Shown piece by piece: positions 9,562 through 16,424 of a stretch of 16,424 bases of DNA. Positions within the stretch are counted from its first letter, which is position 1. The number at the start of each line of letters is the position of its first letter. The position numbers and the translations under genes were made by a program. This DNA is from a virus, in UHGV virus genome UHGV-0409449; one strand, given 5' to 3'. The notes below the pieces were generated by a model. It saw only the letters and a program-made list of their open reading frames with translations, was not told the DNA's origin and made no database searches.

Positions 9562-11477
9562 GCCGCTACCCCCGCTTTCTGGATTGCTACCAGCAGATCA
9601 GCCAGGTGGCGAGCTGCGCCATTAACCAGCTCTTCGTTTTCCTCAAAACGCCCGGCAGCCTGAAGGGCTGCAATAGCTTCCCGGACATTACCCCGGGCGT
9701 TACGGATCTCCGCCATGTCAGTGCTTTGCATATCCATCACGTTATTGAGATATTCAATGGCTTTATTAGCCTCTGCATCTGCTTCGCTAACCGTTTCATC
9801 AGGCTGTGCCGGGGCCGGTTCTGGCTGAGTAATCTCACCGACTTCGGCCTGCAATGCATTGATCATGCTCTGCACCATTTTCTCGGTGCCAGTGCCCCCA
9901 GGAAACGCAATATTGGGGAAAGTTTTTTGAAACTGAGTTTTCAGCATTACGCGGAACTCGTCTGGTGAGCTGGTGGCCAGCTCCAGAGCTTTTTGTGCAT
10001 ATTTGCCAAACGGACCATTAGTAAGTGTCTTCGCCAGGAAGTCGAAAGAATCCTCGCGAGGCAATAACTTCAGGTCGTACTCACTCATTTGCTGATCAGA
10101 AAGCGGGGTATCGTAAGTAGCAATGCCGTAGCGTGCATATTCATAATACGGGTCACCTTCATCAGGGCGCGGCAGAATCGCTTTGTTACCTTCAGGTATT
10201 GCGCCAGGGGCCGCCGGACGCATTTGCAGGGCATATCGATATGCACCTACAGAGACTTCTGGTTCAGGCGAAGAGCTACCGGTATCCTCCGCTGGTTCAG
10301 GTTCGACGTTTTCCGGTTTATGTTCTTCTGGTTGGACCAGATATTCCGATACATTACCCGCTTTATAGGCTTTAAACAGCTTGCCGATCGCTTCTGCCAT
10401 GTCCACACCCTGTATGGATTTAGCCTTGATCATGTATACGCTGCCATCCGGATCGGTTAACTGGATATACCCTTCGCCATCCCCAATGAATTGCTTCATT
10501 GATGCACCATTACTGAGCGTCGCTTCCCCGTCCATATGCATACGATTTTTGATACTGGCAAGGCGATCCGTCAGCGCGCGAGAGTGCCCACCAGTCATCC
10601 CCGCTGGAGCAATGGTATCGCGCCCACCAGTGCGATTGAGCTGATCAATCTCCGCCTGCAAACGCTCATTTTCTTGATAAAGAGAATCCGCTTCCGAAGC
10701 AACCGCGTTAATTTTCTGCTCCAGATCTGCCTTCTGGCCTTCTACCGCTGCCACCTGATCCGCGAGGTCGCTCATGGCATCCTCTTTCTGGTCACTGTCA
10801 GCCTGTAGTTGGGTTATTTCATCAACCAGGGCTTTTTTCTTCTTCTGCGCACGCTGGAATTTTGCCGAGTTTTTCTCTGCAAGGTTGGCAAGTTTCATGG
10901 TGACCTGCGCCAGCGTCATATCACGTCCACTCATCGGAGCAACGGTGTGAGTAACGTCTTTTTTATTCAGTAAGAACTGGAAAGCAACCAGCGTATCGCT
11001 ATTGGTGATCCGGTTTTCCGCTGTCGGGCTATGAAACAAAATGCTGATAGTCTGACCATCACTGAGCGGAATAATGGCTGGCAGGACCGGCAGCCCGTTA
11101 ACGTTACGTGCCCGACCAATTTCAGCGCCGCCGATCGCGCGCGCGCCGCTCTGGGCCACATCCCCCGTTTTATCACTCCCCGCAGAGATTCCGGTACCAT
11201 TCAGCTTCTGGTTCAATGCCCGGACAAATGCCTGCATGGTCCGGTGTAACTGCAAACGAGTAGAACTAATCGCCTCCAGTAAATCCGTAGCACACCAGTG
11301 GATCGGCGTGTCATAGAAGAACGTAGCCTCGATTTCCTCCAGGGTGTTGGATTCCGTCATCAGATAGCGGTCCTCACCGGCCATTAATGCGCGATATTCA
11401 TCATCAGTCACTGGCGGGGGAAGCACGTCAAGCCCAGGCTTGATCGTCACCCCTTTATTGATATTGAACTGTTCCAT
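9558..11477 (-). CDS. darA: Antirestriction head protein DarA-like
   Basis: 639 aa, ATG at 11477 with AGGAAA upstream, 1 nt after the hdf stop. An internal segment (...LSDGQTISILF...KLANLAEKNSAKFQRAQKKKK... then coiled coil) is paralogous to the upstream 200-aa protein, the relationship that defines hdf as a homolog of a DarA fragment in P1. Size and operon context match P1 DarA as recalled. Confidence 0.72.
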   Translation of the reverse strand: MEQFNINKGVTIKPGLDVLPPPVTDDEYRALMAGEDRYLMTESNTLEEIEATFFYDTPIHWCATDLLEAISSTRLQLHRTMQAFVRALNQKLNGTGISAGSDKTGDVAQSGARAIGGAEIGRARNVNGLPVLPAIIPLSDGQTISILFHSPTAENRITNSDTLVAFQFLLNKKDVTHTVAPMSGRDMTLAQVTMKLANLAEKNSAKFQRAQKKKKALVDEITQLQADSDQKEDAMSDLADQVAAVEGQKADLEQKINAVASEADSLYQENERLQAEIDQLNRTGGRDTIAPAGMTGGHSRALTDRLASIKNRMHMDGEATLSNGASMKQFIGDGEGYIQLTDPDGSVYMIKAKSIQGVDMAEAIGKLFKAYKAGNVSEYLVQPEEHKPENVEPEPAEDTGSSSPEPEVSVGAYRYALQMRPAAPGAIPEGNKAILPRPDEGDPYYEYARYGIATYDTPLSDQQMSEYDLKLLPREDSFDFLAKTLTNGPFGKYAQKALELATSSPDEFRVMLKTQFQKTFPNIAFPGGTGTEKMVQSMINALQAEVGEITQPEPAPAQPDETVSEADAEANKAIEYLNNVMDMQSTDMAEIRNARGNVREAIAALQAAGRFEENEELVNGAARHLADLLVAIQKAGVAA

Positions 11478-11478
11478 G

Positions 11479-12081
11479 TTAATTTCCTGCTTTCAGTTGC
11501 TTAAGACGACGTTTAAGTTCGCCATTCCGTGCCTTTTCGTTATTGAGTCGGCCCGTCTCCTTATCCAGCTTCGCCCGCAAATCAGTGATCTGCTGTTGAT
11601 TGAAAGACACCGAATTCTGCGCGGACTTATAAGCGGCAACCACCTGAGCATTCCGCTGTTTTGCTTCTTGCAGGCGCTGAAAGTTGGATTTAACTGCCGG
11701 TTTCTTGTCTACCGGATTGGCAACACGCTTCGCTTTGGCGATCAGTGATTTCTGGAATTTTGCGGAGTTTTTGCGGGCCGCCTGTCCCATGACGGTACCA
11801 AGCGTCTTGATATCCGGCGACTGAGCGTTAGGAATAGCTTTTCCATTCAGTTTCACAGACGATATATCGCCAGTATCGTTTACCTGTATGGCAAGAATTT
11901 GTCCGTCGTTAAGAACCAGCTTTGCGGTTTTAACTTTAACGCCATCTTTCGTTGTTGCGCGGTTGCTGGAGTCAACCTCAATTACCGTAACACCGGTTTT
12001 ATTGATCGCCGCGATAAGGGATTTCAGCCCCTTTTCATTAACCTGGTCAAAATCGACCGTTGCATACTTATTTTTCGTCAT
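11479..12081 (-). CDS. hdf: Hdf-like protein (homolog of DarA fragment)
   Basis: 200 aa from the ATG at 12081, which has AGGA about 8 nt upstream; the ORF-track start at 12090 has no spacing to the AGGA. Overlaps the lydB 3' end. Shares KNSAKFQ and a following Lys/Gln-rich coiled coil with the DarA-like protein. Confidence 0.68.
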   Translation of the reverse strand: MTKNKYATVDFDQVNEKGLKSLIAAINKTGVTVIEVDSSNRATTKDGVKVKTAKLVLNDGQILAIQVNDTGDISSVKLNGKAIPNAQSPDIKTLGTVMGQAARKNSAKFQKSLIAKAKRVANPVDKKPAVKSNFQRLQEAKQRNAQVVAAYKSAQNSVSFNQQQITDLRAKLDKETGRLNNEKARNGELKRRLKQLKAGN

Positions 12082-12511
12082 CTGACACATCCTGTGCGAG
12101 ATTTATTACGTAACTTCTGCGGATTTTCTGAGTAACAGGGAAAATCCGATACAACGGGTTAATGAACGAGTCGCCATGCGTAACCATGACGTTGAAATGC
12201 CACAGTCGCTCTCCTTTACCCATATATTCAGTGGGTATGTACAACCATTCACTGTTTTCGCCCTGTTCAGCCGACGTCAGACAACGTTGTTCGCCTTCAA
12301 TCACTGTCGTTGGCTTCTGAACATCGCGGATCCAATATCTGACCGTTGCGCCGCGCAAAAACGGGAATTTAGACCGGTATTTGAACGGCACCCGGATGAA
12401 GCCCTGTTTAATTTCCACATCACCAAGTTCTAAATGCGTGATGTCCTTGCGTTTTAGCAAATAGCGATCGGCTAAGGCTAACGCAAGAACGCATACACCC
12501 CAGCCAATCAT
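12068..12511 (-). CDS. lydB: Antiholin-like protein (P1 LydB-like)
   Basis: 147 aa. ATG at 12511-12509 overlaps the lydA stop (ATGA), with GGAGG 8 nt upstream. N-terminal hydrophobic segment, then a soluble domain. Assigned by position after the holin-like gene and by recalled P1 order. Confidence 0.55.
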   Translation of the reverse strand: MIGWGVCVLALALADRYLLKRKDITHLELGDVEIKQGFIRVPFKYRSKFPFLRGATVRYWIRDVQKPTTVIEGEQRCLTSAEQGENSEWLYIPTEYMGKGERLWHFNVMVTHGDSFINPLYRIFPVTQKIRRSYVINLAQDVSDDEK

Positions 12512-12837
12512 TTCCCACCTCCCTTTTTCACCAAACTTGTAAGAACATTCAGAATGCTATCGATATTCACTCGTTTCATCCCTGAAATCACCTCATGACC
12601 GTTATTGCTGGCTATCGTTACCATTAAGTACGTAATTGATAACTCCCAGCCTTCGTGTTGCCCCAATAGGTACGCCACCGCGCCAGCTGTCACTGCAACA
12701 AAGATCTCCGTAACCAATCCCAACAAATTGCCAGACTGGCGACCATCTCGGACATCCATCAGGAACGTGCCTATCCCACCAATTACTGAAAGCAGGAGCG
12801 CAATAGCAACTGGAGCTAATTCCTGTGTGTCAAGCAC
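12508..12837 (-). CDS. lydA: Holin-like membrane protein (P1 LydA-like)
   Basis: 109 aa with GTG start at 12837-12835 and a strong SD (AGGAGGG) 5 nt upstream. Two to three hydrophobic helices (APVAIALLLSVIGGIGTFLM; LLGLVTEIFVAVTAGAVAYLL; LSITYLMVTIA) and a charged C-terminus KKGGGK. First gene of the overlapping lydA-lydB-hdf-darA chain. Confidence 0.6.
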   Translation of the reverse strand: MLDTQELAPVAIALLLSVIGGIGTFLMDVRDGRQSGNLLGLVTEIFVAVTAGAVAYLLGQHEGWELSITYLMVTIASNNGHEVISGMKRVNIDSILNVLTSLVKKGGGK

Positions 12838-12904
12838 AAGTTCCCTCCTACGTTGTCAGGAGGTAATGGTATGCAAAGTAACTTCTCAACCGGTCATTTG
12901 TTGC

Positions 12905-13312: not shown

Positions 13313-13873
13313 ATGCTAATAGGCTATGTACGTGTATCAACAAATGAACAAAACACTGCTTTACAACGAAACGCTCTTGAAAGCGCAGGATGTGAGCTAA
13401 TTTTTGAGGACAAGGCGAGCGGCAAAAAGGCTGAGCGCCCTGGGTTAAAAAAGGTACTCCGTATGCTTTCCAGAGGTGATACCCTGGTCGTATGGAAGTT
13501 AGACCGTCTTGGGCGCAGCATGCGTCACTTAGTTGTGCTGGTGGAAGAGCTGCGTGACAGAGGCATTAACTTCCGGAGTCTCACTGACTCCATCGACACC
13601 AGTACACCAATGGGGCGCTTTTTCTTTCACGTAATGGGTGCGCTGGCAGAAATGGAACGTGAGCTTATCGTTGAACGTACACGCGCTGGACTTGATGCAG
13701 CTCGCGCAGAAGGTCGTATAGGTGGGCGTCGGCCTAAATACCAAGAAGAAACATGGCAGCAAATGCGGCGATTGCTGGAGAAGGGTATCCCCCGTAAGCA
13801 GGTTGCAATCATCTATGATGTGGCTGTTTCCACGCTTTATAAGAAGTTTCCGGCGTCATCATTTCAATCCTAA
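13313..13873 (+). CDS. cin: Serine recombinase, site-specific DNA invertase of the Cin/Gin/Pin/Hin family
   Basis: 186 aa. N-terminus MLIGYVRVSTNEQNTALQRNALE carries the catalytic Ser, and the sequence runs through the diagnostic core (GDTLVVWKLDRLGRSMRHL...FRSLTDSIDTSTPMGRFFFHVMGALAEMERELIVERT...GRIGGRRPK) to a C-terminal HTH (IPRKQVAIIYDVAVSTLYKK). Essentially the Cin sequence as I recall it. Confidence 0.92.
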   Translation: MLIGYVRVSTNEQNTALQRNALESAGCELIFEDKASGKKAERPGLKKVLRMLSRGDTLVVWKLDRLGRSMRHLVVLVEELRDRGINFRSLTDSIDTSTPMGRFFFHVMGALAEMERELIVERTRAGLDAARAEGRIGGRRPKYQEETWQQMRRLLEKGIPRKQVAIIYDVAVSTLYKKFPASSFQS

Positions 13874-13890
13874 ACCTTGGTTTAAGAGAA
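13865..13890. other. cix-type crossover site for the invertase (26 bp, imperfect dyad)
   Basis: CAATCCTAAACC-TT-GGTTTAAGAGAA: two 12-bp half-sites matching at 8 of 12 positions when the right half is reverse-complemented (TTCTCTTAAACC), around a 2-bp core at 13877-13878. This is the Hin/Gin/Cin crossover-site architecture with the AAACC..GGTTT core. The cin stop codon (13871-13873) lies inside the left half-site. It is the only such site in the window. Confidence 0.75.
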
Positions 13891-15420
13891 CTCGGTACCA
13901 GCGGTGAAAAGATCCCCCTGTTGAGCACGGCTAACACATGGAGTGCACGCCAGACTTTCAACGGCGGGATCACCGGGGCGCTGACAGGGAATGCCGACAC
14001 CGCGACGAAATTGAAAACAGCGCGGAAGATTAACAACGTTTCATTTGACGGTTCGGCAGATATTTCTTTAACAGCCTCGGATGTCGAAGCATTGTCACTG
14101 GAGGATGCCAGGAAGATTATTCAACCGCTGCCAGATGTGTGGATACCGTTTAATGATTCACTGGATATGATTGCGGGCTTTTCTCCATCATATAAAAAGA
14201 TTGTTATTGGCGACGACGAAATAACAATGCCTGGCGACAAGGTTGTTAAGTTTAAACGCGCATCGAAAGCAACCTATATAAATAAATCTGGTGTGCTGAC
14301 AGAGGCTGCCATTGACGAGCCACGATTTGAACGTGATGGCCTGCTTATTGAGGGACAACGAACAAACTACATGCTCAATTCGGAAAACCCTGCCAGTTGG
14401 GGGCGATCGTCAAATATGGATGTTCCCGAAACCGGGACGGATAGTTTTGGTTTTACCTATGGAAAGTTTGTCTGTAACGATTCTCTGATTGGGCAAACAT
14501 CAGCCATTAATATGGCATCAATTGCTGCTACAAAGTCAGTTGATGTTTCAGGCGATAACAAGTACGTGACAACCTCATGTCGTTTTAAAACAGAACGACA
14601 GGTAAGGTTGCGTATCCGCTTTGATAAATATGACGGTAGTGCAACAACTTTTCTTGGTGATGCATATATTGATACACAAACGCTTGAAATTAATATGACA
14701 GGTGGCGCGGCATCAAGGATTACAGCGAGAGTCAGAAAGGACGAAGCTACTGGATGGATTTTTGCAGAGGCAACAATCCAGGCAATTGATGATGAGTTAA
14801 AAATAGGATCTCAGATACAGTATTCTCCTAAGCAGGGCGGAGCAACCGTATCTGGAGACTATATTTATCTGTCTACCCCTCAAGTTGAGGATGGTTCTTG
14901 TGCATCATCTTTTATTATCTCAGGAACGACGGCGGCTACCCGCGCAAGCGATATAGTTACAGTTCCAATTAATAATAATCTTTATAATCTTCCTTTTACG
15001 GTTCTTTGTGAGGTACATAAGAACTGGTATAAAACGCCAAATGCAGCGCCACGTGTTTTTGATACCAGCGGTCATCAAACCGGAGCGGCTATTATTCTTG
15101 GGTTCGGATCTTCGGCAGATGGGCCAGACGGATTTCCTTATTGCGATATTGGAGGAGCTAACAGACGGGTAAACGAAAACGCATCGCTTGAAAAAATGGT
15201 TATGGGGATGCGTGTAAAATCAGATCAGTCTACGTGCTCAGTAAGTAACGGGCGCATATCCAGCGAAAAAAAGACTACGTGGTCCTATATTCAGAACTCT
15301 GCAACCATCCGTATTGGAGGCCAGACTACAGCAGGGTTACGTCATTTATTTGGTCATATCAGGAATTTCAGAATATGGCATAAAGCATTAACAGACCAAC
15401 AAATGGCTGAGGTTATTTAA
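13879..15420 (+). CDS. Tail-fibre variable C-terminal cassette (Sv-prime-like) with no initiation signals of its own; LamG-like tip domain
   Basis: Frame is open from 13843 across the cix site with no ATG and no RBS; the listed start at 13921 is a TTG. Carries the conserved tail-fibre hinge motif GNADTATKLKTARKINNVSFDGSADISL. C-terminus LFGHIRNFRIWHKALTDQQMAEVI resembles the terminal strand motif of Laminin_G_3 / concanavalin-like jellyroll domains. Expression would require inversion-mediated fusion to a constant 5' part located outside the window. Confidence 0.7.
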   Translation, partial: GLRELGTSGEKIPLLSTANTWSARQTFNGGITGALTGNADTATKLKTARKINNVSFDGSADISLTASDVEALSLEDARKIIQPLPDVWIPFNDSLDMIAGFSPSYKKIVIGDDEITMPGDKVVKFKRASKATYINKSGVLTEAAIDEPRFERDGLLIEGQRTNYMLNSENPASWGRSSNMDVPETGTDSFGFTYGKFVCNDSLIGQTSAINMASIAATKSVDVSGDNKYVTTSCRFKTERQVRLRIRFDKYDGSATTFLGDAYIDTQTLEINMTGGAASRITARVRKDEATGWIFAEATIQAIDDELKIGSQIQYSPKQGGATVSGDYIYLSTPQVEDGSCASSFIISGTTAATRASDIVTVPINNNLYNLPFTVLCEVHKNWYKTPNAAPRVFDTSGHQTGAAIILGFGSSADGPDGFPYCDIGGANRRVNENASLEKMVMGMRVKSDQSTCSVSNGRISSEKKTTWSYIQNSATIRIGGQTTAGLRHLFGHIRNFRIWHKALTDQQMAEVI

Positions 15421-15698
15421 TGAAAGATATTACGTTGAAATTCAGAGACAGGGAAGAATACGACTCTTTTTTAGAGAGTATATCCTGGCACGATAATGAA
15501 GAACTGCAAAACAACATCCTTCTTGATGTTGTAGGTATTACATATACCGAAATACCAAACGGCGAGAACGAAGAACCAACAGTGATTAAAAATGATGGCT
15601 TCTTCGTTAATGTTCGTATTTTAAACAACAGTTTGAAACAACAAATGTTTGATGGTTTTGAAGTTCAATTAGAACAACCGCTGCGGGAATGGGCGTAA
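15420..15698 (+). CDS. Small protein translationally coupled to the tail-fibre cassette (possible fibre chaperone/assembly factor)
   Basis: ATG overlaps the upstream stop (TAATG) with GAGG 7 nt upstream. 92 aa, acidic. Does not resemble Tfa/U-type assembly proteins that I know. Confidence 0.4.
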   Translation: MKDITLKFRDREEYDSFLESISWHDNEELQNNILLDVVGITYTEIPNGENEEPTVIKNDGFFVNVRILNNSLKQQMFDGFEVQLEQPLREWA

Positions 15699-15707
15699 GG
15701 AATTAAT

Positions 15708-16424
15708 ATGGCAACAGTGACAACGATACCAGCAGATATAACTAATCTGAAAAAAGAAATCGACTCTATTAAGAGTGATGTTGCTAAAAAACTGGAAAGT
15801 TCAGGCGGCACAATAACTGGTGATCTAACAGTTGTTGGTGGCATTTCTGGTGAGCTGTCCGGCAATGCCTCAACGGCTACAAAGCTGAAAACCGCGAGAA
15901 AGATTAATTCCGTTTCGTTTGATGGTTCAAAAGACATTAACCTCACGCCTCAAGATATTGATGCATTGCCAATAACCGGAGGAACTCTTACCGGCGGTTT
16001 AACGGTTGATGGTGAGATTGTCTCCAAGTCAGGAAATGGCTTCCGCATCGTACAGGGTGACTATGGATTCTTTATCCGAAACGATGGTTCAAGCACATAC
16101 TTCATGTTGACCAATTCGGGCGACAGCCTGGGAACATGGAATAGTTTAAGGCCGCTTACCATTAACAACGCCAATGGTGCTGTTTCAATCGGTAATGGTT
16201 TAACTGTTAATGGTTCTGTTGGTCTGGGTACTGCAAATGCTCTTGGTGGTAACTCTATCGTCCTTGGCGATAATGATACTGGTTTTAAACAGAATGGTGA
16301 TGGCATTCTTGATGTTTACGCTAATGGTCAGCGAGTATTCCGCTTTCAGAATGATGCGGCTTTTTCTTTAAAAAAATTGCTGGCCGGAGATAGTAAAACT
16401 TTTTCACTATCAAGTTCTAACACA
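15708..16424 (+). CDS. Tail-fibre-like protein with its own start, 3'-partial (runs off window)
   Basis: ATG at 15708 with AAGGAA 5 nt upstream. Open frame of 239 codons to the window edge, not in the ORF track because no stop lies in-window. Has the same hinge motif (GNASTATKLKTARKINSVSFDGSKDINL) about 50 aa from the N-terminus, followed by Gly/Asn/Thr-rich beta-rich fibre-like sequence. Confidence 0.7.
   Translation, partial: MATVTTIPADITNLKKEIDSIKSDVAKKLESSGGTITGDLTVVGGISGELSGNASTATKLKTARKINSVSFDGSKDINLTPQDIDALPITGGTLTGGLTVDGEIVSKSGNGFRIVQGDYGFFIRNDGSSTYFMLTNSGDSLGTWNSLRPLTINNANGAVSIGNGLTVNGSVGLGTANALGGNSIVLGDNDTGFKQNGDGILDVYANGQRVFRFQNDAAFSLKKLLAGDSKTFSLSSSNT

Follow-up and report, generated by a model that had tools for sequence, protein, structure and literature searches.

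A long open reading frame that lacks any means of starting its own translation raises the question of how, and as part of what protein, it is ever expressed. One such frame lies at positions 13879..15420, on the plus strand, of the virus genome UHGV-0409449, a stretch of 16,424 nucleotides referred to here as the window. Its 513 codons correspond to an alternative C-terminal part of the tail fibre S. Judged from its map of open reading frames (ORFs) and from similarity searches, the window derives from a phage-plasmid that is P1-like (IncY), and with a probability of roughly 88% the frame is an Sv′-type silent cassette of the Cin-invertible C-segment of this element. The locus as a whole is a classic, well-understood C-segment switch; what is new is a horizontally acquired tip module of two domains with lectin-type folds.

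The cassette begins at a recombination site. The 26-bp site cixL (CAATCCTAAACC TT GGTTTAAGAGAA, 13865..13890) is identical to the cixL annotated in P1 and consists of two imperfect 12-bp half-sites flanking a 2-bp core, the TT at 13877-13878. Position 13879, at which the original prediction for this locus had placed the start of the cassette, is the first base past this crossover dinucleotide. The site stands at the boundary of the segment, overlaps the stop codon of cin (13871-13873) and holds the only exact match to TAAACCNNGGTTTA in the whole window. The cin gene (13313..13873, plus strand) encodes a serine DNA invertase (Pfam Resolvase, E 4.6e-51; HTH_7, E 1.9e-18) which is identical to P1 Cin at 186 of 186 residues. 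Within the 5′ part of cin lies the recombinational enhancer (13331..13402, plus strand), assigned by its position and by its identity to the enhancer annotated in P1, where it is placed at cin +18 to +89; counted by eye, one of its 72 bases differs from the P1 string. DNA identity to P1 is 99.2% from cin to approximately 14021, where the homology ends. Features that characterise a segment inverted by the Din family of invertases (Cin, Gin, Hin and Pin) are found here: an adjacent invertase, a 26-bp site, an enhancer, a cassette devoid of initiation signals and, across relatives, a second, inverted site and both orientations.

The frame of the cassette comprises 525 codons without interruption: the preceding stop in this frame is the TAA at 13840, the first open codon (13843) still belongs to cin, and the terminating TAA occupies 15418-15420. 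It therefore runs uninterrupted through cixL, as had been predicted. The first start-like codon in frame is the TTG at 13921, which is preceded by GCGGTGAAAAGATCCCCCTG with no Shine–Dalgarno sequence at a usable distance, and the first ATG does not occur until 14167; a search of the in-frame starts in the cassette, these two included, found none with a Shine–Dalgarno sequence. Sites resembling sigma-70 promoters number six against 6.4 expected, which is chance level, and the P1 late-promoter box AAGTTACTT is absent from the cassette strand, both upstream of and inside the cassette. The proposed lack of a start codon and ribosome-binding site is thus borne out, and a functional promoter with a start, which would have pointed to an ordinary gene, was looked for and not found. 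At its C-terminus the protein reads ...RHLFGHIRNFRIWHKALTDQQMAEVI up to the stop codon (...FGHIRNFRIWHKALTDQQMAEVI), in agreement with the terminus quoted in the original prediction.

The 5′ part of the frame resembles known tail fibres. Cassette residues 17-70 match many tail-fibre PHROG families, and a conserved tail-fibre motif with PHROG matches, GNADTATKLKTARKINNVSFDGS (13987..14055, plus strand), is repeated in a second fibre gene of the window, the two regions being 61% identical over 61 residues (E 9e-21). This is probably the element that had been described as a conserved fibre hinge motif. The motif is real and recurs, while the label ‘hinge’ could not be verified.

As the window stops inside the segment, evidence for inversion was taken from relatives. 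The genomes compared here are U2501 (stretch L001), CP077708 (L002), phage Tritos (L003), pMB9880_3 (L004) and pAVS0578-B (L005). CP077708 has the orientation seen in the window, with a cassette that is 99.5% identical. It carries a second site, TTCTCTTAAACC-AA-GGTATTGGATAA, inverted, approximately 6.07 kb away and adjoining Sc, the constant part of the fibre gene; its terminal inverted repeats are approximately 197 bp long. The inverted cixR lies at 15641-15666 in L002 and at 11960-11985 in L005. In U2501 and pAVS0578-B the same cassette (98.8–99.1% identical) is fused in frame to Sc, forming an annotated product of 966–967 residues in which the joint reads ...VIQYLGLRELGTSGEKIPLL..., and in pAVS0578-B cin is found at the far end of the segment, beside the other cassette.

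The junctions themselves record the exchange. Between the two orientations, which were compared across near-identical plasmids rather than within one culture, all four half-sites at the junctions have changed partners, with the break falling precisely on the core dinucleotide. The outer half-sites TCAATCCTAAACC (cin side) and GTTATCCAATACC (Sc side) remain with the flanks, and the inner half-site GGTTTAAGAGAAC remains with the segment. The cassettes and the flanks of CP077708 and pAVS0578-B are 98–99% identical, yet the flanks are inverted relative to the cassette. Together, the swapped half-sites and the inverted flanks form the pattern predicted by Cin-type recombination at the core dinucleotide. 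The idea of a silent alternative C-terminus expressed after inversion, already put forward in the original prediction, is therefore supported by the comparison of U2501 and pAVS0578-B, where the cassette is fused, with CP077708, where it is not.

These observations suggest the following mechanism. In the orientation of the window the cassette adjoins the 3′ end of cin and would be untranslatable, having no start codon, ribosome-binding site or late promoter. Cin, assisted by the enhancer inside its own gene and presumably by host Fis, would recombine cixL with an inverted cixR, which would lie beyond the end of the window, about 6.1 kb off as in close relatives. Exchange at the central TT would bring the cassette in frame behind Sc, which makes up approximately 450 codons of gene S, and under the control of the late promoter LPs, so as to yield a fibre of approximately 966 residues. 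A 92-residue ORF, the second fibre gene and tfa would invert together with the cassette and would join the same late operon. The new tip of the fibre, a beta-sandwich like that of a gene transfer agent (GTA) head spike fibre followed by a ConA/LamG-like jellyroll, most likely binds a surface polysaccharide and in this way would change the host range.

A related junction is found outside the P1-like elements. In pMB9880_3, a 48-kb P2-like phage-plasmid, a cixR-type junction (TTATCCAGTACC TT GGTTTAAGAGAA, approximately 4995-5020 in L004) lies within a constitutive fibre gene of 792 residues; Sc-like sequence is present upstream, and there is no invertase gene within the 12-kb stretch examined. 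From its sequence, this gene looks like a fixed ‘ON’ copy of an Sc–cassette fusion. A homology with the P2-like plasmid that starts exactly at cix was considered and rejected, since the Sc-like sequence extends upstream at lower identity.

The tip contains two beta-sandwich domains. The first is the GTA head-spike-fibre-like domain (14344..14946, plus strand), which was overlooked in the original prediction. It is detected by the NCBIfam model NF048003 (GTA_spike_fiber), whose cutoff is 36 bits, with a score of 55.1 (E 1.3e-14), over cassette residues 159-359 and model positions 1-181 of 182. The second, the ConA/LamG-like jellyroll domain (14935..15417, plus strand), ends in FGHIRNFRIWHKALTDQQM. 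An exhaustive search of cluster representatives gave 2,290 relatives, and a diverse alignment, A3, holds 29 sequences: that of the window and 28 trimmed relatives at 25–47% identity. When the A3 profile was compared with the sequences in PDB, its C-terminal part matched 4qvs (2e-5), the HCN domains of BoNT/D and BoNT/C (5e-4) and pentraxins (2e-3 to 5e-3). Its middle part matched RcGTA Rcc01080 (7e-38), Pa193 gp46 (7e-18), E217 gp45 (1e-17) and a gp17 tail fibre. With the single cassette sequence as query, the RcGTA fibre was the sole match in PDB.

Structure prediction points in the same direction. AlphaFold2, supplied with A3, produced a nearly all-beta model with a pLDDT of 89.5 and a pTM of 0.88; a run with a shallow alignment (43 sequences at 83–99% identity) reached a mean pLDDT of 43, left the C-terminal domain unmodelled and was discarded. 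Foldseek searches of PDB and BFVD agree with a jellyroll, the BFVD matches being phage proteins annotated as ConA-like or LamG-like as well as E. coli phage tail fibres at a TM of 0.9. A profile that included lambda-Stf N-termini matched mostly shaft proteins, and a second homologue search, with a diverse profile still holding the window sequence, was dominated by close E. coli relatives and added nothing. Searching the literature for tail fibres with Laminin_G_3 gave no specific results. In the predicted model and in the profile comparisons alike, the ConA/LamG-type jellyroll fold of the C-terminal domain is confirmed.

What such a tip might bind is suggested by its relatives. The RcGTA homologue of the middle domain has been shown experimentally to bind capsular polysaccharide (PMC10218006, PMC7296036). 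Siphovirus lateral fibres with this tip have been proposed to bind O-antigen glycan motifs, and phage VogelGryff, whose fibre gene is approximately 80% identical at the nucleotide level, additionally requires the core of lipopolysaccharide (LPS) (PMC8594841). Given the proteins that share its fold, and given that the distant RcGTA homologue binds capsule, it is reasonable to suppose that the tip binds carbohydrate. Among surface polysaccharides, the LPS core, the O-antigen and the capsule would be the most likely kinds of ligand.

The cassette opens a module that is inverted as a unit: behind the tip come the 92-residue ORF and the second fibre gene, to which relatives add the chaperone gene tfa. 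The original prediction had treated it as a single ORF and had overlooked this composition. The 92-residue ORF (15420..15698, plus strand), whose start overlaps the stop codon of the cassette, is a conserved partner of the tip. It matches phrog_1361, a PHROG family of unknown function, over its full length (E 1.8e-35), and may act as an adaptor or chaperone for the tip. The second tail-fibre gene (15708..16424, plus strand) has its own ATG, matches Pfam Gp34_trimer (E 3.2e-29) and runs off the end of the window; in U2501 its counterpart is annotated as a phage tail protein of 365 residues and is followed by tfa. Because this gene has its own ATG inside the segment, one orientation would be expected to express two fibre proteins.

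The tip appears to have been acquired by horizontal exchange. In nucleotide comparisons, its variable part (14119-15390) reaches 93% identity with the side-tail-fibre (Stf) genes of three lambdoid phages (Tritos, HannyBb and 2G7b), whereas the lateral-fibre genes of siphoviruses are 80–83% identical. The same tip, at 83–99% protein identity, is carried on N-termini of the P2 type (PF12571, PF03406) and of the lambda-Stf type (PF08400). The cassette had been judged by eye to be more AT-rich than the Dar operon, and calculation bears this out: its GC content is 0.444, compared with 0.500 for the Dar block (6196-12511) and 0.520 for darA. The 5′ part shared with P1 (13879-14118) has a GC content of 0.521 and the variable part (14119-15420) of 0.429, so that GC drops roughly where the homology to P1 stops. 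The suggestion that host-range modules are exchanged horizontally thus gains support from both the lower GC content and the 93% identity to lambdoid genes, and published work already counts cin-Sv′-U′-U-S among the hot spots of P1-like elements, being hypervariable and low in GC (PMC9603915, PMC6906374). A literature search on HannyBb and Tritos gave irrelevant matches only. In Tritos, a gene for a PinR-type invertase (6191-6781 in L003) lies downstream of the fibre gene with the same tip, approximately 1.6 kb away.

The conserved partners of the tip allow another view of its function, in which it would serve mainly as a docking platform for the second fibre, possibly via the 92-residue protein, and so form a branched fibre like the LtfA/LtfB fibre of DT57C. 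Several observations fit such a role. The order of tip, small ORF and second fibre is kept in P1-like, P2-like (pMB9880_3) and lambdoid (Tritos) elements, and the small ORF shares 46% identity with the homologue in Tritos. The second fibre and its Tritos counterpart are conserved only in the first 45 or so residues, at 42% identity, as would be expected of an attachment peptide. Branched lateral fibres made of two proteins are, moreover, known (PMC4728585). The linkage of the genes is, however, equally well explained by the co-transfer of two independent fibres, and we regard docking as the main function of the tip as speculative, possible but doubtful, with a chance of about one in five. Docking, as speculated here, would in any case be compatible with binding of glycans by the tip.

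It is also conceivable that the segment holds a second, inner switch. A candidate inner crossover site, or quasi-cix (TTATCCGAAACG AT GGTTCAAGCACA, 16072..16097), lies inside the second fibre gene. It has four mismatches to the consensus site of the Din invertases, and approximately 0.08 such matches are expected by chance per window. Copies are found in the relatives at 11773 and 14273 in L002, 8206 and 10601 in L005, and 8203 and 10742 in L001. The quasi-cix is at the centre of a block of approximately 60 nucleotides that is shared without a difference by all copies, those in the second fibre gene and those that lie, inverted, in the Sv of the other cassette. Across this block, four distal tip types have been re-assorted between plasmids, and the central 2 kb or so of CP077708 is the reverse complement of that of pAVS0578-B at 97.8% identity. 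A predicted isomer, in which tip c of CP077708 would follow the 5′ part of the second fibre gene, was sought in PLSDB, where no record covered at least 80% of the query. From the sequences, the pattern could be due either to nested inversion similar to that of p15B Min or to homologous recombination at a conserved motif. A nested, multi-state switch, in which Cin would exchange distal tips and tfa between the two genes via the inner pair of quasi-cix sites, seems to us unlikely. If it does exist, then, with one outer state deploying the S fibre and its LamG-like tip together with the second fibre, the element could present at least four receptor-binding configurations, including fibres that are branched or of dual specificity.

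The interpretation of 13879-15420 as a silent cassette of the Cin switch with a sugar-binding tip has several points weighing against it. Because the window ends at 16424, it reaches neither cixR nor Sc, and neither of them is therefore visible in the element itself. Some P1-like plasmids carry decayed switches, with truncated cin or altered C-segments (PMC6906374). For the tip, Pfam Laminin_G_3 (PF13385) scores 17.9–18.2 bits on the window sequence, below the gathering threshold of 27.6, and the match extends over residues 461-511 and model positions 99-149 of 151, that is, the last third of the model only. Finally, the case for carbohydrate binding is built on the fold and on a distant homologue. 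At the level of the family, 23 of the 29 A3 sequences individually match Laminin_G_3 at E ≤ 0.01 (best 6.6e-12), which supports homology through intermediates. The Laminin_G_3/ConA-like tip of the original prediction thus stands as regards its fold and its family membership, and has to be amended in its extent, the domain measuring approximately 160 residues rather than 200, and in that its own Pfam score is sub-threshold.

The first two of these points would also fit a switch that has become frozen, the cassette then being a fossil of past recombination that no longer inverts. This we consider improbable. The Cin of the window matches the functional enzyme of P1 at 100% identity, cixL is unchanged, the enhancer carries its single difference and the 1.5-kb frame of the cassette is intact, and relatives that are 98–99% identical to each other occur in both orientations. 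From these features we infer that the switch is probably active in this particular element as well. A similarly small chance is given to the C-terminal ConA-like domain being no lectin but an enzyme that cleaves glycans, such as a glucanase or a lyase. The modules that it matches best, both in structure and by profile, bind without catalysis (AbnA domain 4, CBM40, BoNT HCN, pentraxins and LamG), and no catalytic family was matched in Pfam or NCBIfam, no inspection for catalytic motifs having been made. Least likely of all, and very improbable, is an ordinary independent gene that starts at TTG 13921 or ATG 14167 and is read through from cin promoters to give a free lectin-like protein: although cin is transcribed toward the cassette on the same strand and stand-alone database entries of 416–433 residues (P0019, P0088, P0090) fit a start equivalent to ATG 14167, neither candidate has a Shine–Dalgarno sequence, promoter-like sites are at chance level with no late promoter, conserved fibre-shaft residues, which in relatives continue the frame of Sc, precede both candidates, and homologues with long contexts bear the tip at the C-terminus of fibres of 650–1000 residues.

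Upstream of cin, the window contains the Dar region (6196-12837, minus strand), with ddrB (995 residues), ddrA (121 residues), darA (639 residues), hdf, lydB and lydA in the same gene order as in P1. The late promoter LPdar (12866-12884, minus strand), composed of the -22 box AAGTTACTT (at 12884) and a -10 element, is identical to LPdar of P1 and precedes lydA and the Dar operon. This is the single occurrence of the late-promoter box in the window.

Understanding of the switch mechanism is unchanged by these findings. They do show that the host-range switch of P1 has been re-armed in natural phage-plasmids with a receptor-binding module from lambdoid and P2-like phages. P1-like phage-plasmids carry resistance genes between hosts and also serve as delivery vectors, and knowledge of their fibre tips aids the prediction and engineering of host range. 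Silent cassettes are skipped by automatic annotation, or perhaps mis-called as short stand-alone proteins. Hundreds of entries of 416–433 residues, some of them from E. coli chromosomes, are annotated as ‘phage head spike fiber domain-containing protein’, and these may be silent invertible cassettes mis-called as genes in their own right.

Among known systems, the C-segment of P1 is the closest. The two share an identical Cin protein, a cixL that overlies the cin stop codon, the neighbouring lydC, lydA and Dar operon with LPdar, the first 143 nucleotides or so after cix, and an Sv′ without initiation signals that is joined to Sc by inversion. The annotation of P1 likewise lists cin, cixL and then Sv prime as a feature that is not a coding sequence. 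Beyond approximately 14021, however, the cassette of the window is unrelated to the Sv′ of P1. The P1 segment is 4.2 kb long with repeats of approximately 0.6 kb, whereas in relatives of the window these measure approximately 6.1 kb and 0.2 kb, and the place of U′ in P1 is taken by the 92-residue ORF and a complete second fibre gene, with tfa in the relatives.

The Min system of p15B, described by Sandmeier, Iida and Arber, is reportedly a multiple-inversion system with six crossover sites and many isomers. It resembles the present locus in having a Din-family invertase beside a tail-fibre segment in a P1-related plasmid, and the family of the window may likewise have inner crossover sites. 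It differs in that the only genuine cix sites found in this family form a single outer pair, the inner pair having four mismatches to the consensus and an AT core.

For the tip, the counterparts lie elsewhere. Rcc01080 (GhsB) of RcGTA is homologous to the middle domain (NF048003) and is a single subunit on the capsid spike (PMC7296036); in the window this domain instead belongs to the distal part of a tail fibre, with an additional LamG-like domain behind it. The ConA-like modules to which that last domain is related in fold (AbnA domain 4, CBM40, BoNT HCN, CRP/SAP and laminin LG) have 8–15% sequence identity to the tip. Further counterparts are the Stf tips of lambdoid phages (Tritos, HannyBb and 2G7b) and the lateral-fibre tips of siphoviruses (VogelGryff/Bas25 and tunus), with which the variable part is shared; in Tritos it is also followed by an ORF of 93 residues and then a second fibre gene. 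In those phages, however, the tip is constitutively fused, the N-terminal attachment part being of the lambda Stf type (PF08400), whereas in the element described here its partner would be the Sc of P1 and the fusion would be switched.

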